A DNA stretch of 24,000 nt from Pyrococcus abyssi GE5 (GTDB lineage Archaea; Methanobacteriota_B; Thermococci; Thermococcales; Thermococcaceae), in the NCBI RefSeq assembly GCF_000195935.2, contig NC_000868.1, positions 1,437,742 to 1,461,741 of the forward strand. The letters run 5' to 3'. This document shows positions 3,220 through 11,632 of this stretch, piece by piece. Position numbers and translations under genes: made by a program. Positions within the stretch are counted from its first letter, which is position 1. The number at the start of each line of letters is the position of its first letter. Under the pieces are notes generated by a model. It saw only the letters and a program-made list of their open reading frames with translations, did not search any database and was not told where the DNA came from.

Positions 3220-5280
3220 TCAACCTTCAACCTTAGAAATCCTACATGCAGCTGTTTTCAGCTCGGGCATCTTAGAGAACTCGTCAATTGCATCGTCCTT
3301 CGTTAGGTAGTTGAAGCCCCAGTGCCACGGCATCGCAACTACGCCTTCCCTTATGTTCTCCGTGACCTCGGCCCTAGCTACGAGAGAACCTCTCCTCGTC
3401 TCGACCCTAACCAGGTCCCCGCTCCTTATTCCAAGTCTCTTGGCATCTCTTTCGTTTATCATCACATAAGGCCCAGGCCACCTCTTCTTCAGGCTCTTAG
3501 TCCTGTTGCTCATCGTTCCCGTGTGGAATTGGCCAACCAACCTGAAGTTCGTGAGCCAGAAGGGATACTCCTCATCTGGAACTTCTCCTGGAGGCTTCCA
3601 CTCAACTGGAATTAGCTCGGCCTTTCCGCTCTTGGTTGGGAATCCCTTGAGGAACAACCTCGGGGTCTCGGTGTTCTCGTCGGGACATGGATACATGCAA
3701 CCCTCAAGGTTCTTTGCAAGCCTCTCCGGTGTCGCTCCCTTAAGAGCCGGAATGACGTTGTTTATTTCCCTGAGAACATCGTCAACGCTCGAGTAGTTGA
3801 AGTACTCACCAAGTCCAATGGATTTTGCCAACATAACAATTATCTCCCAATCAGGCTTAGCCTCCCCTGGGGGCTTAACCGCCTGGAAGCTCCTCATAAC
3901 CCTCCTGTTCTGAGTTATAACGGTTCCAGTCTTTTCGTACCATGCGGCTGCAGGGAGAACTATGTCAGCGTACTTCGTCGTTTCCGTTGGGAATATATCG
4001 GCAACTACCACGAAAGCCCTCTTTAGTGCCTCCTCTATCTTAGATGAATTGGCTAGGGATCTGGCCGGGTTCTGGCCCATTATGTAAATACCCTTGATCT
4101 TCCCCTCAAGCATGGCATCGAATATTGCCTGGTAATGCAAACCGGGCTTAGATGGAACCTCGAATCCCCAAAGCTCGCTGAACTTTTTAGCGGTCTCCTC
4201 GTTGAGGGGAACAGGTCCTGGGAGTTGAGCACAGTTCACCCCGGGAACAGCTGCACATAGACCACAGTGGGCCCCAGGGATTACCCCAGAGAACACGCCT
4301 TCCTTCCCTATGTTCCCAGTGATCGCTATTAAATTGCTAATGGCCATTGCTGTTATCGAACCATTGGCATGCTGGTTTATTCCCTCGTTAAGAACTACAG
4401 TTGCGTTTCCACCAGTTGCAAAGAGAACCGCAGCTTCGTGAATTAAGCTCGCCGGAACTCCGCTAATCTTCTCCGCCCACTCCGGGGTGTACTTCTCAAC
4501 GGCCCTAGCCAGGGCATCGAAGTTGTTAACCCTCTCCGCAACGAAATCCTTGTCGTAGAGCTCTTCCTTGATTATGACGTGGAGCATTGCTAAAGCTATT
4601 GCCAAATCTGTTCCTGGGTAGGGTTGTAGGTGAATGTGAGCGTACTTTGCGGTTTCTGTCTTTACTGGATCCACAACGATTAGCTTAGCACCGTTGTCAA
4701 GGATTGCCTTCTCAAAGTACTGACCAAAGAGAACCGGATTGGTGGCTGCAGGGTTGTACCCCCAGATCAGGATTACCTTAGACTTTACTATGTCATCGAA
4801 AGGATTCGTCTGGGCTGGACCTCCGAAGATCTTACTTCTAGCAACGAAGTTAGATGATTGACAGAGCCTACCTGCGAATTCAACGTTGTTAGTTCCCAAG
4901 GCTCTAGCGAGCTTTTGGAGGAGGTAGTTATCTTCAAGGGAACAGCGCTCGCTACCCAGGAACGCTAAGGCCTCTGGGCCGTGACTTTCCAATATCTCCT
5001 TGAATTTCTTTGCGATTATCTCTATGGCCTCTTCCCAACTTATCTCCTCGAACTTTCCCTCTCCTTTCTCGCCAACTCGCTTGAGGGGCTTCTTTAGCCT
5101 ATCGGGATGAACGTAGTGCTGATAAGATGAGACACCCTTGGGGCATAATTTTCCCTTGTTGGGAGTTTTTGGGTTATAATCGAACTCTATCTTCCTAGGA
5201 TAACCGTCAACGCTTACTATGTACAACCTACACCCGACGGAGCACCAGGGGCATACAACGGGAATTAACTTCTCTGCCAT
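3220..5280 (-). CDS. fdhA: Molybdopterin/tungstopterin oxidoreductase, formate dehydrogenase alpha subunit (Cys-type, cytoplasmic)
   Basis: 686 aa. N-terminal [4Fe-4S] motif CPWCSVGCRL...C(x)PKG. The segment NNVEFAGRLCQSSNFVARS aligns by eye with the E. coli FdhH active site NNVDCCARVUHGPSVAGL, placing Cys140 (TGT, 4861-4863) at the Sec position. No twin-arginine signal. Context is ferredoxin plus antiporter-like subunits, as in the Thermococcus fdh-mfh-mnh clusters. Confidence 0.8.
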   Translation of the reverse strand: MAEKLIPVVCPWCSVGCRLYIVSVDGYPRKIEFDYNPKTPNKGKLCPKGVSSYQHYVHPDRLKKPLKRVGEKGEGKFEEISWEEAIEIIAKKFKEILESHGPEALAFLGSERCSLEDNYLLQKLARALGTNNVEFAGRLCQSSNFVARSKIFGGPAQTNPFDDIVKSKVILIWGYNPAATNPVLFGQYFEKAILDNGAKLIVVDPVKTETAKYAHIHLQPYPGTDLAIALAMLHVIIKEELYDKDFVAERVNNFDALARAVEKYTPEWAEKISGVPASLIHEAAVLFATGGNATVVLNEGINQHANGSITAMAISNLIAITGNIGKEGVFSGVIPGAHCGLCAAVPGVNCAQLPGPVPLNEETAKKFSELWGFEVPSKPGLHYQAIFDAMLEGKIKGIYIMGQNPARSLANSSKIEEALKRAFVVVADIFPTETTKYADIVLPAAAWYEKTGTVITQNRRVMRSFQAVKPPGEAKPDWEIIVMLAKSIGLGEYFNYSSVDDVLREINNVIPALKGATPERLAKNLEGCMYPCPDENTETPRLFLKGFPTKSGKAELIPVEWKPPGEVPDEEYPFWLTNFRLVGQFHTGTMSNRTKSLKKRWPGPYVMINERDAKRLGIRSGDLVRVETRRGSLVARAEVTENIREGVVAMPWHWGFNYLTKDDAIDEFSKMPELKTAACRISKVEG

Positions 5281-5300
5281 CCTGGGTCACCCATTGGAGT

Positions 5301-5318
5301 TATGACTGACCAGTCATA
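5301..5318. promoter_or_regulatory. Perfect palindrome TATGACTG-AC-CAGTCATA (core ATGAC-N6-GTCAT) between the candidate fdhA TATA box and the fdhA start codon; candidate operator
   Basis: Read directly. 8-bp arms, 2-bp spacer, 21-38 nt upstream of the fdhA ATG (5280), about where a TSS is expected from the TATA-like box at 5342-5349. Confidence 0.4.
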
Positions 5319-5341
5319 CACCTAAGAATGAGAACTTGAAA

Positions 5342-5366
5342 CTTAAATACTTTGTGCAATATTTAA
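5342..5366 (-). promoter_or_regulatory. Candidate TATA/BRE region for the fdhA operon
   Basis: Minus-strand TATTTAAG (5342-5349) and TTAAATAT (5359-5366) sit in an AT-rich stretch 60-85 nt upstream of the fdhA ATG. GGTGA RBS at 5286-5290. No TSS data, so the exact box is uncertain. Confidence 0.3.
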
Positions 5367-5405
5367 CCTAAGGTGATAATCAAAATAGGGAAATGATGTT
5401 ATTTG

Positions 5406-5421
5406 ATGACCATTTGGTCAT
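5406..5421. promoter_or_regulatory. Second palindrome ATGACCA-TT-TGGTCAT with the same ATGAC-N6-GTCAT core
   Basis: Read directly. 7-bp arms. It lies about 90-105 bp from the first copy, upstream of the candidate fdhA TATA boxes. Confidence 0.35.
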
Positions 5422-5570
5422 AACGCTTTGAATTATTTTACCTTAACTTTCTCAATCCTTAAGATATGAGGCGTAATTTCACCAATACGGGAAAACAATA
5501 TCCAGAAAATTGAGGATTTGCATTCCTCCAAACATTAAAATGAGGAGTTCCAAAACATTAAGTTACCCAA

Positions 5571-5580
5571 AATATTAATA
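5571..5580 (+). promoter_or_regulatory. Candidate TATA box for the wHTH-membrane protein gene
   Basis: AATATTAATA lies 40 nt upstream of ATG 5620. The predicted leader would contain the GGTGA RBS at 5610-5614. Confidence 0.35.
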
Positions 5581-5619
5581 AGCATCCAAAGCACAATTTA
5601 ATTAAATTTGGTGAGCAAA

Positions 5620-6066
5620 ATGGTAAACCTCTCAATGTTCTCAACCCAATCTTCAACTATTCTTGGAAACGATAGAAGATTAATGGTCATCGAATACTTG
5701 AAGAGTCATAGCGGAGAGGCCGAGATAAGCGAGCTCGTGGATTACATATGCAAAAGCGAGGGAAACGAAAGAAGAAGGCACAGAAAAAGCGTTTATGTTA
5801 GCTTAGTTCAAACACATCTCCCAAGGCTTCAAAGGGAAGGCATCGTAAATGTGAAGAGGAGTAGGGTGTACCTGCTCGATGTTCCCTCCGAGGTTCATGC
5901 TTTCATAACGATAAAGAACGCGAAGAGGAATATGTGGCCGATAGTCTACCTGATTTTCTCGGCCGTTGCATTGTCTACATCGCTGTTAATAGCGAGCTCC
6001 GAGGGAGTGATATTCTCTTTGTTCCTACTCGCATTGGCTGTACTCCATTGGGTGCTAACTAGCTAA
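5620..6066 (+). CDS. Membrane-anchored winged-helix (ArsR-like, DUF7344-like) putative transcription regulator
   Basis: The track ORF starts at TTG 5608. ATG 5620 follows GGTGA at 5-nt spacing. The N-terminal ~95 aa (ILGNDRRLMVIEYLKSHSGEAEISELVDYI...RKSVYVSLVQTHLPRLQREGIVNVKRSRVYL) match, from memory, the pattern of archaeal wHTH proteins with the 'sLyqtHLPkL' recognition region. The C-terminal ~50 aa form two hydrophobic helices. Confidence 0.7.
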   Translation: MVNLSMFSTQSSTILGNDRRLMVIEYLKSHSGEAEISELVDYICKSEGNERRRHRKSVYVSLVQTHLPRLQREGIVNVKRSRVYLLDVPSEVHAFITIKNAKRNMWPIVYLIFSAVALSTSLLIASSEGVIFSLFLLALAVLHWVLTS

Positions 6067-6100
6067 TTCTCCTTCAGAATTATAGTTTTACGTTCCCTAA

Positions 6101-6110
6101 CTTTTATTTT
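6101..6110 (+). terminator. Oligo-T tract (CTTTTATTTT) downstream of the wHTH gene
   Basis: Archaeal terminators are typically T-runs. This one is 35-44 nt after the stop at 6064-6066. Confidence 0.3.
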
Positions 6111-6143
6111 AGAAAAACTGAGCTCCAACTCTATCCCTCTAAT

Positions 6144-6164
6144 ATGGTAATCAGGGGTTACCAT
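6144..6164. promoter_or_regulatory. Palindrome ATGGTAA-N7-TTACCAT upstream of the secreted-protein operon promoter
   Basis: Read directly. 7-bp perfect arms, about 20 bp upstream of the TATA-like CTATATAC. Confidence 0.3.
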
Positions 6165-6183
6165 CATGGAAAGCTGAAACTAC

Positions 6184-6191
6184 CTATATAC
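6184..6191 (+). promoter_or_regulatory. Candidate TATA box (CTATATAC) of the TasA-like operon
   Basis: Preceded by purine-rich GAAACTAC. The expected TSS is near 6215, which argues against the track's TTG start at 6212. Confidence 0.4.
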
Positions 6192-6247
6192 AACTTCAAC
6201 TCTACTCTTGGTTGAGCCCTCACATGGGGGGCTCAGTTGACCAGGAG

Positions 6248-6853
6248 ATGGAAAAAGTGAATAGATATCTACTTGCCATATTTGGCCTTGTGGCCACATT
6301 TGGTCTCGTACTTGGAGTCGGGGCCAATTTTAGGGACTACAACGCAAGCAGGAGCGTCCACTGGGACATAGTTGCCGACGACTCGGAGCTAATTGACTTG
6401 ACTCCGATTCAGAACTACTCGTACATAGATGAAAACGGAAAGCTCGTGATAGACTTTTCACCCGGTAACCCCAACTATCCAGGCTATGGAAACGGGGTAA
6501 GTCCAAGTAGTGAGTACAACTTCGACGAGGTATTCGGAGTTAGTAACCACCTATGGGAGAACCTTCCTATAGTGGTTGAGATAAACTCCACAAACTCACA
6601 CATAGAGCTTTACGGGGCAGATGGAAACGTGTACTCAGCCTATGACGGAAACTTGGCTAGTGCAAGCGACTCAGCAAGGGACTGGGTTTGCTTTGTAGTT
6701 CAGCCCGAAGACATGGTTAAGGTAGGAATGGACCTTTCAGCAAACGGCGACTCACCTGGAGACACCTGGACTGGAAGTTTGAAGATCAGGGCCTACAGGC
6801 TTGGCACCGAGCCTGCTTACCTAGTGGGCAAGTGCGGGCAGGGGCCTATTTGA
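6248..6853 (+). CDS. Secreted TasA/AbpA-like (DUF1102-like) putative fibre subunit, paralog 1
   Basis: The N-terminal hydrophobic segment ends in VGA|NFRDYNASRS. The protein is roughly 60% identical by eye to the next ORF over about 65 residues (DDSELIDLTP..NGKL...YPGYG.G.S..S.Y.F.E.F.VSN.LWEN). Start is ambiguous: ATG 6248, or GTG 6257 (AGGAG RBS 9 nt upstream), which gives MNRYLL parallel to MNKLF of paralog 2. Family assignment is from remembered sequence patterns, not a search. Confidence 0.75.
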   Translation: MEKVNRYLLAIFGLVATFGLVLGVGANFRDYNASRSVHWDIVADDSELIDLTPIQNYSYIDENGKLVIDFSPGNPNYPGYGNGVSPSSEYNFDEVFGVSNHLWENLPIVVEINSTNSHIELYGADGNVYSAYDGNLASASDSARDWVCFVVQPEDMVKVGMDLSANGDSPGDTWTGSLKIRAYRLGTEPAYLVGKCGQGPI

Positions 6854-6867
6854 AGGAGGTATGAGAA

Positions 6868-7395
6868 ATGAATAAGTTGTTTGGAATTGCCCTGTTCCTT
6901 GCAGGGCTTATGTTGGCGGTTGGCGCTGGAGCCAACTTTAGGTACTTCGAGGCAGATAGGGACATGACAGTCGCGATAGTAAGCGACGATAGTGAGTTAA
7001 TAGACTTAACCCCAGTACAGCCTTACGTATACCTAAACAACGGAAAATTGACAGTTGAGATATCGTCCGGACACCCTGAGTATCCAGGATACGGCGATGG
7101 ACTTAGCACAGACAGCCTGTACGTCTTTGAAGAGATGTTTAACGTAAGCAACGAGCTTTGGGAGAACGCCGGCCAGGACTACCCGATATGTGTCACCATA
7201 AAGGCACAATTACCAGTAAAAGTATTCGCCGGAACTTACGACAGCCCGATAGCGGGACCCGACGATACTATCAGCTTTACAGTGTACCACGGCCAGCCCG
7301 TTCCAGTTGGAATGATCTTTGACAACACCGGACTAGACCTAGGAGGGCACCAGATACAGCTAGACATAAGCGCTGTTGCCGGTGAGTGCGAGTGA
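6868..7395 (+). CDS. Secreted TasA/AbpA-like (DUF1102-like) putative fibre subunit, paralog 2
   Basis: GGAGGT RBS 7 nt upstream of the ATG. The signal-like N-terminus MNKLFGIALFLAGLMLAVGAGA|NFRYFEADRDMTVAIVSDDSELIDL resembles the 'GAF..v.AeRtvsv..adD...L.L' N-termini I recall for haloarchaeal TasA-like/DUF1102 proteins and the bacterial SipW-cognate signal class. Confidence 0.8.
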   Translation: MNKLFGIALFLAGLMLAVGAGANFRYFEADRDMTVAIVSDDSELIDLTPVQPYVYLNNGKLTVEISSGHPEYPGYGDGLSTDSLYVFEEMFNVSNELWENAGQDYPICVTIKAQLPVKVFAGTYDSPIAGPDDTISFTVYHGQPVPVGMIFDNTGLDLGGHQIQLDISAVAGECE

Positions 7396-7422
7396 AGGGG
7401 CTTCGGCTCCTTTTCAGCTTTT
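7395..7422 (+). terminator. Hairpin with TTCG loop followed by two T4 tracts, immediately after the paralog 2 stop
   Basis: AAGGGGC-TTCG-GCTCCTT forms a 7-bp stem with one G-U pair, followed by TTTTCAGCTTTT. It sits between the structural genes and the peptidase gene. Confidence 0.4.
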
Positions 7423-7434
7423 AGGTGACGAAAG

Positions 7435-8418
7435 ATGCGGGCCTCCGATTTGATTATCGACCTGGTAATCCTGGGCATAATATTACCCTCGGTTATCGGG
7501 TTCATGATGGGGAGGCCCGTGTTCGTTTCCTATGCCTACTCAGATAGCATGACGCCAACGATAAACAGATGGGACGTTTTCTTCATAAATCCGCTATCAA
7601 AAGGAGACGTTGGAGATATAATCGTCTTTAACCTCTCGGGCAAGTGGACTGTTCATAGGGTATATGCCATAACCGAAAGCGGATACATAACTAAAGGAGA
7701 CAACAACGTTGCAACGGACCAACAAGACAATAAGAATCCACCAATCCCGAGGAATCAGGTGATAGGGAAAGTCATAACGCTTGGGGGTAGACCCATAAAG
7801 ATACCTAAGCTTGGAAAGTACCTACAATCTAAGGATTCCCACTACTTGGCGATAGGATTAGTGGCCTTGGGTGGAGTAATGCTAGGCAGTAATGAGAAGA
7901 GAAGAAGGAAAAGAAGAGGAAAAGTCATTGATACTGGAACCATATACATAGCGCTTTCAGCTTTATTAGCGTTCGGAGTAGTGTTCACGGGTTCAATAGC
8001 GTGGGGTGAGATAAGCATTCCATATACATCAACATTGGCCGGAGGGCAAAGGGAAGGATGGTACCTGCCGGGAAGCGTCGTTGAGAGAAACGTAACCGTT
8101 GAAAATTACGCTAAGTTTCCTATGGTAATGGTCGTTGAAGGGGAAGACATTAGAAGGGTATTCAAGCTGGAAGGTGGAGAGGAAAGAAAGATAGAGATAA
8201 CCATAGACGTTCCAGAAGAGACGAGGGTTTACAATAAGGTCATTAAGGTTTATCCGTATTATCCGATACTTCCACTGAAGCTCATAGACTGGGCCAACTC
8301 AAAAAGCCCATACCTACCCCTGCTCATGGAGGGACTAATGGTATTCCTGGGACTGTTAGCTTTGAAGCCATTACTTGGGGAACCTGAATATATAAACCTT
8401 GGGAGATTTTGGAGTTGA
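7435..8418 (+). CDS. Type I signal peptidase, S26 family, SipW/Sec11 (Ser-His) type, fused to a ~190-aa C-terminal multi-TM plus beta-rich extension
   Basis: Catalytic boxes read directly: YSDSMTPT (Ser box), WTVHRVYAI (His box), TKGDNNVATDQQD (GDNN box). GGTGA RBS at 7424-7428. After residue ~135 come TM2, the basic loop NEKRRRKRRGK, TM3, a ~100-aa non-hydrophobic domain and a final TM. Confidence 0.85.
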   Translation: MRASDLIIDLVILGIILPSVIGFMMGRPVFVSYAYSDSMTPTINRWDVFFINPLSKGDVGDIIVFNLSGKWTVHRVYAITESGYITKGDNNVATDQQDNKNPPIPRNQVIGKVITLGGRPIKIPKLGKYLQSKDSHYLAIGLVALGGVMLGSNEKRRRKRRGKVIDTGTIYIALSALLAFGVVFTGSIAWGEISIPYTSTLAGGQREGWYLPGSVVERNVTVENYAKFPMVMVVEGEDIRRVFKLEGGEERKIEITIDVPEETRVYNKVIKVYPYYPILPLKLIDWANSKSPYLPLLMEGLMVFLGLLALKPLLGEPEYINLGRFWS

Positions 8419-8810
8419 GAAAAATAATTGGAATATTGCTAATTGCAATGGCCCTTCTAACGCTAGAGGTCGGTAGCGTCTCGAACTTTAGGGAGGCCAG
8501 CATGGAGAGGGAGGTTATAGTTGGTTATGGGGACCCTTTCATAGACGTTAGCTGCGAGACCCATGTAATTTGTTGCCATCAGATTGGAGTTATAACGGTG
8601 AAGAACAACCTGGATGAACCCATAGAGGTCTATCTCCTAAGGAAACGTTGCCACTGCACTCAAAGAACTTACATTGGAACTATAGAGCCTGGACATTCAG
8701 AAAACATCTACGTTCTCCCAGGAAATTACACTATACAGGCAGAGTGGAACAGTGGAGGGGCCAAAATAAACGTGACTTGCCCATGCATTAGGAGGGAGCA
8801 TCATGATTAA
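8409..8810 (+). CDS. Small Cys-rich secreted protein with the same N-terminal signature as the two fibre-subunit paralogs
   Basis: N-terminus ...IGILLIAMALLTLEVGSVS|NFREASMEREVIV. Seven Cys (SCETHVICCH, RCHC, CPC) and a C-terminal EHHD. Start is non-ATG (TTG 8409 or 8415) and overlaps the peptidase stop, so it is uncertain. Confidence 0.6.
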   Translation: MELRKIIGILLIAMALLTLEVGSVSNFREASMEREVIVGYGDPFIDVSCETHVICCHQIGVITVKNNLDEPIEVYLLRKRCHCTQRTYIGTIEPGHSENIYVLPGNYTIQAEWNSGGAKINVTCPCIRREHHD

Positions 8811-9720
8811 AGACAATAGATTATCGTACGCGTTCCTGGGACTCTTCGCGCTATTCCTACTACTCTCGCTAGCCTCCTACTCGAGGCCAACCAGCTTCAG
8901 CAGACAGGTGATTGAGGGTAGCATCGTCGAGGAAGGAATGCTAAAGCATGAAGGACACTTAATGAATTCAACAATCTATGGGGAATTCGCGTCCTTAGGT
9001 TATTACCCAACGAAGATCACCGATTACATCGTTGGGGACTACAGGTACAGGGTTACCCCTAAAGAAGATGGAAACTACACGCTGAAAGGCTTGGTCTCTT
9101 ACTACGTCACTAAGGGGAAGGGAAAGGTGTACCTCATAAACGAGACGATGTTCAGCTATAAAGGAAAGTTAACCAACGGAATGTTCGAGGAGAAGTTCAC
9201 GGTGAACCTAAGCAAGATAAACAAGAGAAGGAGCGAGATAAGCGAAGCTTTGAACTTGCCGAGGTTAAGTTACGAGATTAAGGTTGTTGCAGATATTGAT
9301 AGGGAAAACGGAACTTTCAGTCAAGAGATGCCCGTAATCAACGATGCCGCAAGCGGTTTAACGTACATAGACAACACGAACATAAAGAAGAGGAATGCCC
9401 TTACAAAGACCGTTAAAGAAGAGTTGAAGTTCCTTGGCATGAGGGTTTCAACCGCTAGAATAGTGTTCCCGATACTCGCGTTCATCTCGGGGGTTGTAGC
9501 TTTACTAGCTTGGGAGCCCAGGAAGAGGAAGTGGGCCATAGAAGCTAGACCCACGGGAATAGGAGAGAGGGTAATAGTCAACGACATGAAGAGCTTAAAG
9601 AAGATAGCGGGAATAGTTGGGAGTCCAATAATTCACTACGAAACTGACGGAATAAGTGTATACGGAGTTATAGATGGACACGTGCTCTACGAGTACTGGG
9701 AGATCAGGAGCGAGCCTTGA
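8803..9720 (+). CDS. Bitopic/two-TM membrane protein with a ~190-aa external domain and a ~70-aa C-terminal cytoplasmic tail (DUF5305-like?)
   Basis: GGAGGGAG RBS. The ATG overlaps the upstream stop (ATGATTAA). TM at aa ~8-26 and aa ~217-237, followed by the basic stretch EPRKRKW. The family name is only a recollection. Confidence 0.65.
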   Translation: MIKDNRLSYAFLGLFALFLLLSLASYSRPTSFSRQVIEGSIVEEGMLKHEGHLMNSTIYGEFASLGYYPTKITDYIVGDYRYRVTPKEDGNYTLKGLVSYYVTKGKGKVYLINETMFSYKGKLTNGMFEEKFTVNLSKINKRRSEISEALNLPRLSYEIKVVADIDRENGTFSQEMPVINDAASGLTYIDNTNIKKRNALTKTVKEELKFLGMRVSTARIVFPILAFISGVVALLAWEPRKRKWAIEARPTGIGERVIVNDMKSLKKIAGIVGSPIIHYETDGISVYGVIDGHVLYEYWEIRSEP

Positions 9721-11632
9721 TCCAGGCTAATAGGATTATCACTCCCGCTCCTAAGATAACCCCAAAGAGGAACACGAGCAAGTTGGACTTCCCGCTCTTT
9801 ACCTCTATAGTTTTTGTAACAGTTGTTGTCGAGTGCTTTGTCAAGGTTTTCACTTGAGTTTCAGTCTTTACCTCGGTCTTAGTTTCTGTGACCGTTAATG
9901 TTCTAGCGGTTCCATTAGTTAGGGTTATCGTTTTGGTCTCGGTCTTAGTTTTAGTCACCGTAACCGCTTGAGATGAGCCTACGGCCTCGAAGGATATCTT
10001 CGACGAGTACAACTTCACACCATAGGCTTCTAAGTACAAGGGTATCGTGTAGTTCCCCGGGCTCACGACAACTAGTTTAATGCTCTTGACGCTGGCCGGT
10101 ACGGTTACCACTCCAGAGTGGAGTGAGCCCTCGGAAAGTAAGCCCACCCCACTTGGCAAGGCCATCGTGATGTTACCTATTGGAGGATCAACGACGAAGT
10201 TTACCTCGAAGGGCTCCCCTATTCTAGTAACGTTGAGGTAACTAACACCTACGGTTACGTTGATCGCTTTAACGTTCACAATCGGGGAATTTGATGTAAA
10301 GCTAATCAGTGAGAGACCTCCACAAGCCAAGGGATAAGGAACTGGCCCTTCAACGACGAGCCTGCCTACGGTTAAATTACCCGGCTTGAGTGGAACTAAC
10401 GTGAACTTAAGCACTTCACTTTTTCCTGGAGCCAGGGACTTTATGTAAACTTCATCCCTTAAGACCTTGAAGCCATTCCCGGGCTCGAATTTTGCGATCA
10501 TACCTAAGACCTCGCTGGTTCCCTCGTTCTTAACGCTCACATTCACTGTAAAGGGCGTTAGCATCGTAACTTCTCTAGGGGCGCTAACAGTTACGTTCAG
10601 GTAAGCTAGGTATTGGGGCTTCTTTCTCTCGGTGTAGAAGGCTATGAAGTGGGCCTTCTTCCCATTATTATCTTGGGAAGTTTCTAAGAGACCTAACCTT
10701 AAACCATCGTATTCAAGGGCTCCTATGACGTCTTGACTTGCCCTTAAAACTCCCGAATGTAGCTCATTCCCGCAGTTGTTCTCTATACCTATATAAGCCG
10801 CTCCATCGGCTATGCCTTTAACCTTCACGACCAAATCTCCAACCCTAAAGGCCTTGCCCTCGTAGACCCAGAAATCCTTGGAAGGATCGTAGCTTATTGA
10901 AATGTCTAAGGCCCTAAGGTAAACCTCGAGTGAAATTATGGGATCACAAAGGTTCCCTTGCATCTCGCACCTGAAGCCGTTGTACTTAACTATGAAGGGC
11001 CCAACGTAGCCGTAGTCTCCTTCATCTATGTAATAATCCTTGCCCTCGAACTCTATGTTTAGTATGCTCTTTGATTTGTTGTTGACTATGGTCATGTTCA
11101 AACCAGCTAGGGTTAGCTTGTAATCGCCATAGGTTACGTTGCTCAAGAGCTTAAGTTCCCCGCTGAAGACCTTCGGTCTAGGTGTTATAGAAAAGCTGTA
11201 ACCATTCAGCTGGAAGGGCTTCGTATAGCTCTTCCCGCCGGTTCCGTTGGAAACCACGACCTCGTAAGAATCAACCTTAACGTCCTTTACTAGAACCTTG
11301 TAACCTCCAACAACTATGCTCTGGTTCACGAGCAAAGGGGGCAAGGTAACGTTCAAGTAGAACATCGGCTTCTTGCCCAAGAACATCTTAACAAGCTTCA
11401 CCTTAACATTCCCAACATCTTTTTCATCGCCAGGCCTCAGTGAGATGTAGCTGGTTCTGCTAGGGGTGGATACCATTAGCAAGGCTTCACCATCGAAGTT
11501 TCCGTCTTTTGGGATTATCGCGTAGTCACCGTAACTTATCTCCTCCCCTATCCCGAGCCAGCCAGTATAAGTTGAGGCCGAGACCAGTGGAAGGATGAGG
11601 ATCATTACCAGGAGCGCGATGCCCTTCCTCAT
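9704..11632 (-). CDS. Large cell-surface protein: signal peptide, beta-rich ectodomain with CARDB-like module, Thr/Lys/Glu-rich stalk, C-terminal TM anchor; last gene of the fla transcription unit
   Basis: Signal peptide MRKGIALLVMILILPLVSAS. Segment NVTVSAPREVTMLTPFTVNVSVKNEGTSEV...LAPGKSEVLKFTLVPLKPGNLTV fits the CARDB pattern. Stalk TVTKTKTETKTITL...TVTETKTEVKTETQVKT, then LLVFLFGVILGAGVIILLAWIKARS. About 14 N-x-S/T sequons by my count. The ATG lies 3 nt after the flaJ stop, with a GGGGGTG..GGAG RBS. Confidence 0.8.
   Translation of the reverse strand: MRKGIALLVMILILPLVSASTYTGWLGIGEEISYGDYAIIPKDGNFDGEALLMVSTPSRTSYISLRPGDEKDVGNVKVKLVKMFLGKKPMFYLNVTLPPLLVNQSIVVGGYKVLVKDVKVDSYEVVVSNGTGGKSYTKPFQLNGYSFSITPRPKVFSGELKLLSNVTYGDYKLTLAGLNMTIVNNKSKSILNIEFEGKDYYIDEGDYGYVGPFIVKYNGFRCEMQGNLCDPIISLEVYLRALDISISYDPSKDFWVYEGKAFRVGDLVVKVKGIADGAAYIGIENNCGNELHSGVLRASQDVIGALEYDGLRLGLLETSQDNNGKKAHFIAFYTERKKPQYLAYLNVTVSAPREVTMLTPFTVNVSVKNEGTSEVLGMIAKFEPGNGFKVLRDEVYIKSLAPGKSEVLKFTLVPLKPGNLTVGRLVVEGPVPYPLACGGLSLISFTSNSPIVNVKAINVTVGVSYLNVTRIGEPFEVNFVVDPPIGNITMALPSGVGLLSEGSLHSGVVTVPASVKSIKLVVVSPGNYTIPLYLEAYGVKLYSSKISFEAVGSSQAVTVTKTKTETKTITLTNGTARTLTVTETKTEVKTETQVKTLTKHSTTTVTKTIEVKSGKSNLLVFLFGVILGAGVIILLAWIKARS
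9872..9961 (-). repeat. Imperfect 24-nt direct repeat inside the Thr-rich stalk coding region
   Basis: CTCGGTCTTAGTTTCTGTGACCGT (9872-9895) versus CTCGGTCTTAGTTTTAGTCACCGT (9938-9961), 3 mismatches. They encode TVTETKTE and TVTKTKTE. Confidence 0.6.

Follow-up and report, generated by a model that had tools for sequence, protein, structure and literature searches.

A Sec-dependent, Tafi-like DUF1102 gene cluster in Pyrococcus abyssi that probably encodes a surface pilus

We analyzed a 24,000-nt window of the Pyrococcus abyssi GE5 genome (contig NC_000868.1, positions 1,437,742 to 1,461,741), in which six co-oriented genes occupy positions 5620-9720 of the plus strand (open reading frames, or ORFs, were listed over 4500-11000; Table 1). 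Among these genes, the first encodes a membrane-anchored regulator; the next two encode secreted DUF1102 proteins, referred to here as paralogs A and B; and the last three encode a signal peptidase, a small Cys-rich protein, and a DUF5305 membrane protein. A first-pass annotation, made from the letters of the same DNA, had described five packed genes behind a winged helix-turn-helix gene, and the spacing that it gave is exact, namely gaps of 14 and 39 nt (between A and B, and between B and the peptidase gene), followed by overlaps of 10 and 8 nt. We read this locus as a Sec-dependent, Tafi-like (DUF1102) pilus cluster, with a probability of roughly 0.75, and its assignment to the Tafi-like clusters is very secure.

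Table 1. Genes and regulatory features of the cluster, in positions of the 24,000-nt window
Feature	Positions	Strand	Basis or remark
TafB-like regulator	5620..6066	+	DUF7344 winged helix and two C-terminal transmembrane helices
Candidate operator GGTAA-N7-TTACC	6146..6162	no strand	Perfect palindrome, kept among relatives
Conserved TATA box of the five-gene operon	6185..6190	+	TATATA inside invariant TACCTATATAC
Leader hairpin UGAGCCCUC-ACAUG-GGGGGCUCA	6213..6235	+	After the predicted transcription start, ahead of the ribosome-binding site
DUF1102 paralog A, 201 aa	6248..6853	+	Sec-type signal, predicted cleavage VGA↓NFR
DUF1102 paralog B, 175 aa	6868..7395	+	Sec-type signal, predicted cleavage GAGA↓NFR
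TafD-like signal peptidase I, 327 aa	7435..8418	+	Ser/His catalytic domain, TIGR02228
Small Cys-rich minor subunit, 133 aa, 7 Cys	8409..8810	+	NFRE motif in common with the subunits
TafG-like DUF5305 membrane protein, 305 aa	8803..9720	+	Pfam DUF5305, hydropathy

The two small secreted paralogs had been recognized in the first pass, together with a suggestion that they might prove to be DUF1102 proteins. Indeed, both belong to this Pfam family (A, E 2.9e-53; B, E 4.6e-52), and they are 37% identical to one another; B is 100% identical to a known P. abyssi protein. Identity within the paralog A orthologous group is 58-86% across Pyrococcus, Thermococcus, and Archaeoglobi, and A and B are separate orthologous groups that are older than the split of the lineages carrying the cluster. 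The start of paralog A is ambiguous (6244-6259), being either ATG 6248 or GTG 6257, and GGAGATGGAAAAAGTG is invariant here in three Pyrococcus species. GTG 6257 lies 9 nt after GGAG, gives an MNRYLL... N-terminus like the MNKLFG... of paralog B, and matches the Thermococcus arrangement GGAGGCGAAAAAATG; the paralog A orthologs of ∼201 aa in public databases are consistent with ATG 6248.

The three secreted proteins, namely A, B, and the small Cys-rich protein, share an N-terminal module comprising (i) a hydrophobic signal, (ii) the motif G-x-(G/S)-(A/S)-N-F-R, (iii) an Arg followed by a strand of alternating Val and Ile, and (iv) the motif (D/G)D-x-x-ID. Their N-termini (MEKVNRYLL, MNKLFG, and MELRKIIG, respectively) contain no twin-arginine (RR) motif. 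Cleavage at GA↓NF is predicted from an alignment with haloarchaeal TafA, which in its mature form starts with the Phe of this motif, and the prediction may be one residue off; mature A, B, and small protein would then start at N26, N23, and N26, respectively. An AlphaFold2 (AF2) model of paralog B, for which 71 sequences were used (predicted local distance difference test score, pLDDT, of 80.5), consists of a signal helix and a ten-strand sandwich, with only residues 21-39 disordered; in the model of the small protein, residues 22-40 alone are disordered, and in both models this stretch directly follows the predicted cleavage site. Family entropy is lowest at residues 19-31 and 40-53, and residues 32-39 vary among orthologs, while the predicted donor segment of paralog B spans about residues 27-41. 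An N-terminal segment that is disordered in the monomer yet conserved fits a strand working between subunits. The module modeled in this way fits a peptidase recognition site joined to a strand that would become ordered only inside a neighboring subunit.

In a Foldseek comparison of the paralog B model with the PDB, the only matches with E < 1e-3 were 9bab (Hyper2, E 2.2e-4) and 7ueg (the bundling pilin AbpA, E 6.5e-4), both with a probability of 1.00, and the next matches were chaperone-usher pilins and the Sulfolobus thread. A fold comparison with TasA and AbpA had been proposed in the first pass; its AbpA half held, whereas TasA lay outside the top 50 matches. Searching the PDB with the DUF1102 profile (E ≤ 10) likewise returned no TasA chain, and no sequence similarity to AbpA, CanA, or Hyper2 was found at E ≤ 10. 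The best match of this profile was the Tafi pilin 9P0A, which was not significant (E 0.56) and extended over the signal and donor segment, aligning GAGANFRYYEADRSVSV with GTGA-FSSVEADRTVSV.

The peptidase is an archaeal signal peptidase I (TIGR02228, E 2.2e-18, above cutoff) that also scores above the Pfam cutoff for Peptidase_S24, and its Ser/His signature, which had been read correctly from the sequence, comprises S38 in SDSMTP, H74-R75, and GDNN (D89). The predicted order along the chain is a first transmembrane (TM) segment, the catalytic domain, TM2 and TM3 with a charged loop between them, a second extracellular domain, and TM4, with three of the TM segments clear in the hydropathy profile and one weaker. 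The SipW model matches the peptidase with E 2.9e-5 and 23.7 bits, against a cutoff of 190 bits, and the catalytic type agrees; the second domain matches the SipW-dependent matrix protein model weakly (E 0.13). A tblastn search of a plasmid collection with the peptidase returned only 12 haloarchaeal megaplasmids, seven of them over both domains, and these TafD-type matches were 25-28% identical over 81-85% of the peptidase length. The T. aggregans TafD-like peptidase is called as two overlapping ORFs of 147 and 214 aa (L021 6116-7182), which points to a frameshift, a pseudogene, or a truly split enzyme; this locus also carries a third DUF1102 gene.

The last gene encodes a Pfam DUF5305 protein (34.6 bits, cutoff 29) with an N-terminal TM segment, an extracellular domain, a second TM segment at residues 218-236, and a cytoplasmic tail of ∼70 aa, as judged by hydropathy. 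In every locus of sufficient length, the DUF5305 gene comes after those for the peptidase and the tip protein, and the peptidase-DUF5305 adjacency is found in Thermococcales, Archaeoglobales, and haloarchaeal plasmid loci.

The small Cys-rich protein (131 aa as annotated from TTG 8415) matches no Pfam family. It carries the signal peptide and the G-x-x-N-F-R-E segment of the DUF1102 subunits, as had been claimed from its cleavage signature, and hhalign aligns it with the DUF1102 profile at 98.8% (E 7e-17), reaching into the body of the fold (VSNELWEN vs VKNNLDEP). The protein is 60% identical to its P. horikoshii counterpart and 45% identical to that of P. furiosus, and it has only nine representatives among 1.8 billion clusters in an exhaustive scan; a word-indexed search found the P. 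abyssi copy only, and its relatives required the exhaustive scan together with a profile search. Multi-repeat proteins of 868, 608, and 4632 aa from the exhaustive scan were discounted, two of which resembled generic Ig-repeat matches. A profile of the small protein finds Thermococcus two-domain proteins of ∼300 aa (annotated as COG1470 or DUF11), with which it aligns over the N-domain, and single-domain forms also occur in some Archaeoglobaceae. Residues R34, C49, N66, W113, G116, and A118 do not vary in either family alignment; the first also has an invariant C126, and in the second the conservation of C124 is 90% or higher. The AF2 model (pLDDT 75) is a complete seven-strand sandwich with a generic FnIII/Ig-type fold. 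From these alignments, we take the small protein to be a DUF1102-type paralog that has been shortened and that corresponds, as one domain, to the N-domain of TafC-like tip proteins. It has a donor strand on a complete sandwich body; it would donate a strand and probably needs none, and it is most likely an initiator or tip, like TafC, or TapA in Bacillus.

The small protein ends in a Cys/His tail, CPCIRREHHD (8772-8807). Tails of this kind (CCIPHCHHHRRSCKG, HCCCCPHNKRRCRN, GCNNCDHDKGTCDCHG, NHCCNHCNCG, and HCCCCPH) are present in single-domain and two-domain relatives (P0125, P0130, P0132, P0134, P0135, P0138, P0147, and P0148), and 10 of the 28 family members listed contain at least four Cys or His among their last 20 residues. 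Such tails could bind metals or minerals or serve in cross-linking. Cys/His-rich tails are mentioned in neither of two published studies of related clusters (PMC11821415 and PMC12337348), and the former makes no mention of cysteines.

These studies place the cluster, and PMC11821415 was the one article in the collection searched to name DUF1102. In Haloarcula hispanica, where tafA-G were defined, deletion of tafA or tafD abolishes tafi, and TafD processes TafA, the mature form of which starts at Phe-30 (PMC11821415). The same work describes "taf-like clusters" in >60 Thermococcus species, seven Pyrococcus species, Archaeoglobus, and Palaeococcus, and shows (its Fig. 7-8) those of Thermococcus sibiricus, T. 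kodakarensis (TK1701-1707), Archaeoglobus fulgidus, and P. horikoshii (PH0561-0565). Common to these clusters are genes for a two-domain, TafD-like peptidase, for a DUF5305 protein, and for Sec-type DUF1102 proteins, two or three in number; one further gene encodes either a TafC-like protein of ∼300 aa or, in Pyrococcus and T. chitonophagus, a protein of ∼130 aa (PH0562), and AlphaFold heteromers of the P. horikoshii orthologs form linear donor-strand chains (PMC11821415). A second study reports a 4.2 Å cryo-electron microscopy structure, with strand donation, of the TafE pilus from Natrinema sp. J7-2 (9P0A), describes a biofilm phenotype, includes Thermococcales homologs in its TafE phylogeny, and links the pilins by PSI-BLAST (PMC12337348); both articles note the Sec-type variant. 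The P. abyssi locus is orthologous to the P. horikoshii cluster, with proteins 60-87% identical in the same order, including the PH0562-type protein. The first-pass claim of a new biological system therefore falls away: the cluster type was already described in silico in 2025 for Pyrococcus as "taf-like", its ∼130-aa variant included, and adds no new category of system.

The regulator provides the first of several direct links to the Taf components. Its N-domain is a Pfam DUF7344 domain (E 6.4e-17), and hydropathy places TM helices at residues 108-126 and 129-147, in agreement with the membrane-anchored winged helix-turn-helix protein seen in the first pass. Translation from ATG 5620 gives 148 aa, in line with orthologs of 149 and 146 aa, and TTG 5608 is another possible start. 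In BLASTP, the regulator matches Haloferax mediterranei TafB (E 2e-12), itself a DUF7344 protein (E 8.5e-26). A DUF7344 ortholog precedes the first subunit gene in 12 loci and lies directly 5' of the cluster in P. abyssi and in P. horikoshii, P. furiosus, P. yayanosii, and T. chitonophagus (in these four relatives, L015 5827-6276, L016 5844-6284, L017 3800-4261, and L018 3809-4264). The TafB-like regulator gene has been said to be absent in P. horikoshii (PMC11821415), a statement that is contradicted by the DUF7344 gene upstream of the P. horikoshii cluster. In Thermococcus and Palaeococcus, an extra ORF of 68-75 aa with no Pfam match abuts or overlaps the start of the DUF7344 gene (L019 3463-3690, L020 3621-3827, and L021 3545-3766); no such ORF is called beside the regulator in the Pyrococcus loci.

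For the other components, the reference was the taf cluster of Hfx. mediterranei pHM500, whose TafA, TafC, and TafE pass the NCBI equivalog cutoffs. Its TafG is a DUF5305 protein, and its TafD falls in the TIGR02228 score range of the P. abyssi peptidase. An alignment of seven haloarchaeal TafA/E sequences matches the DUF1102 profile over 96 columns (hhalign 92%, E 7e-7), and single-sequence hhalign comparisons gave E values of ∼0.002-0.004, centered on GSGA-F-x3-EA-D/T-R-x-V-x-V. By sequence, the regulator, the peptidase, and the DUF5305 protein are thus clear homologs of Taf components, and the pilins appear homologous at the profile level. The NCBI family models returned no TafE match for the paralogs.

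The closest characterized relative of the locus is therefore the haloarchaeal Tafi system, known from experiments in Haloarcula hispanica and Natrinema, and not TasA or AbpA. The P. abyssi and haloarchaeal clusters have in common (i) a membrane-tethered DUF7344 regulator (TafB), (ii) a two-domain, four-TM Ser/His peptidase (TafD), (iii) a DUF5305 protein (TafG), (iv) two small β-sandwich pilin paralogs (TafA and TafE) and a tip protein with the same N-terminal strand (TafC), and (v) the signal/donor motif GA-(N)F-x3-EA-D/T-R-x-V-x-V. They differ in that the haloarchaeal subunits carry RR signals, whereas those of P. abyssi are Sec-type; that the P. abyssi genes are collinear in one operon, whereas the haloarchaeal genes are shuffled on both strands; and that the P. 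abyssi pilins fall in Pfam DUF1102, whereas the haloarchaeal pilins fall in NCBIfam TafA/TafE. Further, the P. abyssi tip protein is single-domain, without the second LamG or DUF11-like module. Given the absence of RR signals, the cluster is to be named "Tafi-like" and not "Tat-fimbriae" in the strict sense.

The survey of the neighborhood across Thermococcales that had been suggested found the same gene order in 18 of the 19 Thermococcales and Archaeoglobales loci compared, the remaining one (L004) being a 1.8-kb contig with the peptidase alone. The order is kept in P. horikoshii, P. furiosus, P. yayanosii, T. chitonophagus, T. gammatolerans, and T. aggregans, as well as in Palaeococcus, Geoglobus, and metagenome-assembled genomes (MAGs) of Thermococcus and Archaeoglobi. 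A peptidase scan of genome contigs yielded the MAG loci only, and the isolate loci were collected via exact protein look-up.

The upstream region of the operon is conserved as well. A single TATA-like box had been proposed, and in aligned upstream regions of P. abyssi, P. horikoshii, and P. furiosus the TATATA at 6185-6190 and the sequence around it are invariant; TATATA is likewise found upstream in Thermococcus and Palaeococcus loci, and the GGAG before the paralog A start codon is common to the three Pyrococcus species. The more eye-catching TTTTATTTT near 6103, in contrast, is not conserved and lies within an 86-nt stretch (6062-6145) between the regulator gene and the operator, which is found in P. 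abyssi alone and is absent from both P. horikoshii and P. furiosus. This stretch contains a hairpin that begins at the regulator stop codon (TAATTCTCCTTCAGAATTA, 6064-6082) and is followed by a T-run, which may be a terminator for the regulator gene.

The palindrome GGTAA-N7-TTACC sits 23 nt upstream of the TATA box and is the sole perfect site in the window, where its core, GTAA-N7-TTAC, occurs twice against 0.21 expected. In P. furiosus, it reads AGTAA-N7-TTACT, so that the symmetry of the arms is retained despite base changes. More generally, RGTAA-N7-TTACY stands 36-38 nt before TATATA, perfect in 9 of 12 loci and as one-mismatch variants in three; the composite of palindrome and TATATA occurs exactly once per Thermococcales locus that includes the upstream region, and Thermococcus loci have additional half-sites phased by ∼11 bp. 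A second operator half-site at 6168-6184 was unsupported, because matches with two mismatches numbered 15 against 10.2 expected. As in the case of archaeal activators, the position of the palindrome 5' of the TATA box suggests activation, and the putative binder is the adjacent regulator. No palindromic site is mentioned in PMC11821415, nor was the element found in PMC12337348.

Between the TATA box and paralog A, a leader hairpin of 7-12 bp occupies the same position in six species, and its stem sequences differ among them. Since MAFFT moves the register of the hairpin columns between species and counts on a hand-fitted alignment would be biased, we used per-sequence shuffle z-scores instead of covariation counts; these ranged from -2.65 to -5.63, with 0-3 of 200 shuffles folding as well, and no Rfam family matched the hairpin. 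The hairpin did not come up in either of the two Tafi studies, although no search of PMC11821415 aimed at it was made. In Thermococcus-type loci, the leaders are long and extend 140-200 nt beyond the TATA box; GCAACC...GGTTGC and GGGGCA elements recur in them, and a GCCUCC...GGAGGC hairpin overlaps the ribosome-binding site, with individual z-scores that are weak (-0.7 to -1.95; L005 735-775, L006 1706-1746, and L019 4352-4394). Downstream, in the 39-nt gap 3' of paralog B, a hairpin and two T-tracts (7393-7426) might attenuate read-through to the peptidase genes; an attenuator was not adopted here, given z-scores of -3.8 in P. horikoshii and -0.4 in P. abyssi and its absence from P. furiosus, where the gap is 16 nt.

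For Pyrococcus, we infer export, cleavage, polymerization, subunit order, regulator binding, and function as follows. The membrane-tethered TafB-like regulator would control the single TATATA promoter, probably by binding the palindrome, and the five-gene transcript would supply two DUF1102 subunits, the peptidase, the minor subunit, and the DUF5305 partner. All three secreted proteins would be exported via Sec, with signals ending in G-x-G/S-A/S↓N-F-R, where the TafD-like Ser/His peptidase, probably together with the DUF5305 protein, would cleave. Cleavage would release an N-terminal strand (precursor residues ∼27-41) unable to fold into its own subunit, and the freed strand would enter the open β-sandwich of the next subunit, that is, by donor-strand complementation. 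The predicted product is a thin filament made without chaperone or usher, the small Cys-rich protein would nucleate or cap the A/B polymer, and the filament could be expected to serve adhesion, bundling, or biofilm formation. That Pyrococcus actually makes a filament is probable.

Several points weigh against this reading. Literature searches turned up no Thermococcales filament of the DUF1102 type and no experiments on these loci, the published description being in silico; a search by the P. furiosus locus tags PF0323-0328, which gene counting assigns to the orthologs, gave only a flagella paper as a whole-word match, the rest being mostly Pfam accession collisions. Pfam DUF1102 fails to detect haloarchaeal TafA or TafE, the NCBI TafA model matches paralog B with E 0.23 (cutoff 190 bits), and a share of the TafA/E-DUF1102 hhalign score is due to the signal peptides. 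The Foldseek TM-scores of paralog B are modest (0.44-0.51), and 9P0A is not among its top 50 matches. The structure models are of monomers, and strand insertion, subunit order, and polarity lie beyond them. The window holds neither a third DUF1102 protein nor a TM-anchored pilin that could be a TafF-type anchor, which is also the case for P. horikoshii in PMC11821415, and the filament would have to stay attached without a TafF-like anchor or terminator. Lastly, it is conservation that suggests binding of the candidate operator by the adjacent TafB-like regulator, as well as a role for the leader hairpin, which, being located about where the transcript should begin, with a start predicted near 6211-6216 at the foot of the stem, could be a 5' stabilizer of the mRNA or a regulatory element.

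Among the alternatives, strand donation might build wide, cannula-like tubes or a para-crystalline lattice from the DUF1102 proteins. The best solved match of paralog B is indeed a tube, Hyper2, of ∼27 nm (TMt 0.51), slightly ahead of AbpA, and TafE has been placed structurally between the bundling-pilus and cannula clusters (PMC12337348). AbpA (7UEG), the Sulfolobus threads (7PNB), and CanA/Hyper2 (9BAB) resemble the P. abyssi system in their sandwich or jelly-roll subunits, in strand donation, and in the lack of chaperone and usher. However, the accessory genes at the locus (TafD-like, DUF5305, TafB-like, and tip) are the Tafi set, whereas AbpA and thread loci lack tafD and tafG according to PMC11821415, which does not cover cannula loci. 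Moreover, the profile similarity leads to TafA/E and not to CanA, Hyper2, or AbpA, and the P. horikoshii AlphaFold oligomers are linear chains (PMC11821415). Tubes or a lattice are therefore unlikely.

A more specific proposal concerns how the pilus is made. Because Pyrococcus has no counterpart of TafF to serve as anchor, the filament may grow at the membrane in a hand-over-hand manner: with its signal peptide uncleaved and thus as a tethered precursor, the newest subunit would take the free N-terminal strand at the filament base and only then be cleaved by the TafD-like peptidase and the DUF5305 protein, so that its own strand could capture the next precursor, with the Cys/His tail binding metal-sulfide or sulfur surfaces at vents and the regulator switching on the operon via RGTAA-N7-TTACY. 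As a whole, this scheme is a long shot. If it were true, signal-peptide cleavage would be both polymerization clock and anchor, and the filament would stand nearer to sortase-built than to chaperone-usher pili.

It is more doubtful still that the secreted proteins act at the surface as monomers or in association with the S-layer, be it as adhesins, as binding proteins, or as camelysin-like proteases, and are merely matured by the peptidase. This would agree with the literature searches, which found no non-archaellum filament in Pyrococcus, and with the generic Ig/FnIII fold of the small-protein body, and TasA relatives were formerly annotated as M73 peptidases. Nevertheless, Pfam and NCBI family searches gave no protease or binding-domain matches, the conserved, unfoldable N-terminal strand is common to three different proteins, homology ties the locus to the subunits and machinery of proven pili, and the two ancient paralogs and the minor protein mirror a major/adaptor/tip arrangement.

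The first-pass annotation had drawn a parallel with the Bacillus subtilis tapA-sipW-tasA operon, which is functionally apt, since both have a dedicated endoplasmic reticulum (ER)-type peptidase beside its substrates, a donor-strand fiber, and a strand-supplying nucleator. The P. abyssi peptidase differs in its extra domain and three more TM helices, and the DUF5305 protein and the membrane regulator are additional, partners for which we know of no counterpart in the Bacillus operon. Direct common ancestry with that operon, that is, a strict TasA/SipW/TapA system, is very improbable, because, although the ER-type Ser/His peptidase with its neighboring substrates, the strand-donating nucleator, the weak SipW and matrix-protein matches, and the fold match to AbpA (called TasA-like in PMC12337348) speak for it, the expected TasA/camelysin (Peptidase_M73) match was absent from Pfam at E ≤ 1 for the subunits, TasA lay outside the top 50 fold matches, the SipW score falls far under its cutoff, and the DUF5305 and DUF7344 partners have no known counterpart in it.

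If the Tafi-like reading is true, the hyperthermophilic Thermococcales, so far known for archaella, would have another class of surface filament, distinct from type IV pili and built without ATP, chaperone, or usher, which bears on attachment and biofilm formation on vent minerals and on thermostable, self-assembling protein materials. In the published phylogeny, the Sec-type Thermococcales and Archaeoglobales clusters lie at the base of the Tafi family, and this basal position suggests that the Sec-type form is likely ancestral. Added here are a parts list, the predicted GA↓NFR cleavage site, and the correction on the Pyrococcus regulator, as well as the candidate operator, the leader hairpin, and the Cys/His tip tails as testable handles.

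The flanks are as the first-pass annotation had described them, namely formate dehydrogenase, 4Fe-4S protein, and Mrp-type subunit genes upstream and a complete archaellum operon downstream (Pfam). The significance that it had seen in the archaellum neighborhood is lineage-specific, however: the archaellum operon adjoins the cluster in P. abyssi, P. horikoshii, P. furiosus, and T. chitonophagus, and it is not adjacent in P. yayanosii, Thermococcus, or Palaeococcus. Rfam gave no match anywhere in the window, and a sigma-70 promoter scan run on it was uninformative for an archaeon.

Between the cluster and the archaellum operon, a 642-aa gene on the minus strand (9704-11632) overlaps the DUF5305 gene convergently by 17 nt and lies 3 nt downstream of flaJ. 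Its product is a surface protein with a signal peptide and a C-terminal TM anchor, and it has a CARDB domain, a Thr/Lys-rich stalk, and 14 N-glycosylation sequons. Conservation of the gene at this site is limited to P. abyssi, P. horikoshii, P. furiosus, and T. chitonophagus, and a role as anchor or cluster member was rejected because no homolog stands beside the cluster outside Pyrococcus and T. chitonophagus. By reverse transcription PCR, its P. furiosus ortholog, PF0329, is not co-transcribed with the archaellum operon (PMC4263178).

Further observations concern the haloarchaeal plasmids. The peptidase-DUF5305 pair is present in four of the five plasmid loci opened (among L023, L025, L026, and L027), and a Halobaculum plasmid carries a Pyrococcus-like collinear set comprising a Sec-type pilin, a peptidase, a 132-aa protein, and a DUF5305 protein. 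Two of the haloarchaeal plasmid loci have rhomboid protease genes nearby, in Halorubrum PV6 at the expected DUF5305 position, and a 479-aa Natrialba protein annotated as NosL bears a Taf-type RR...GTGAF N-terminus.

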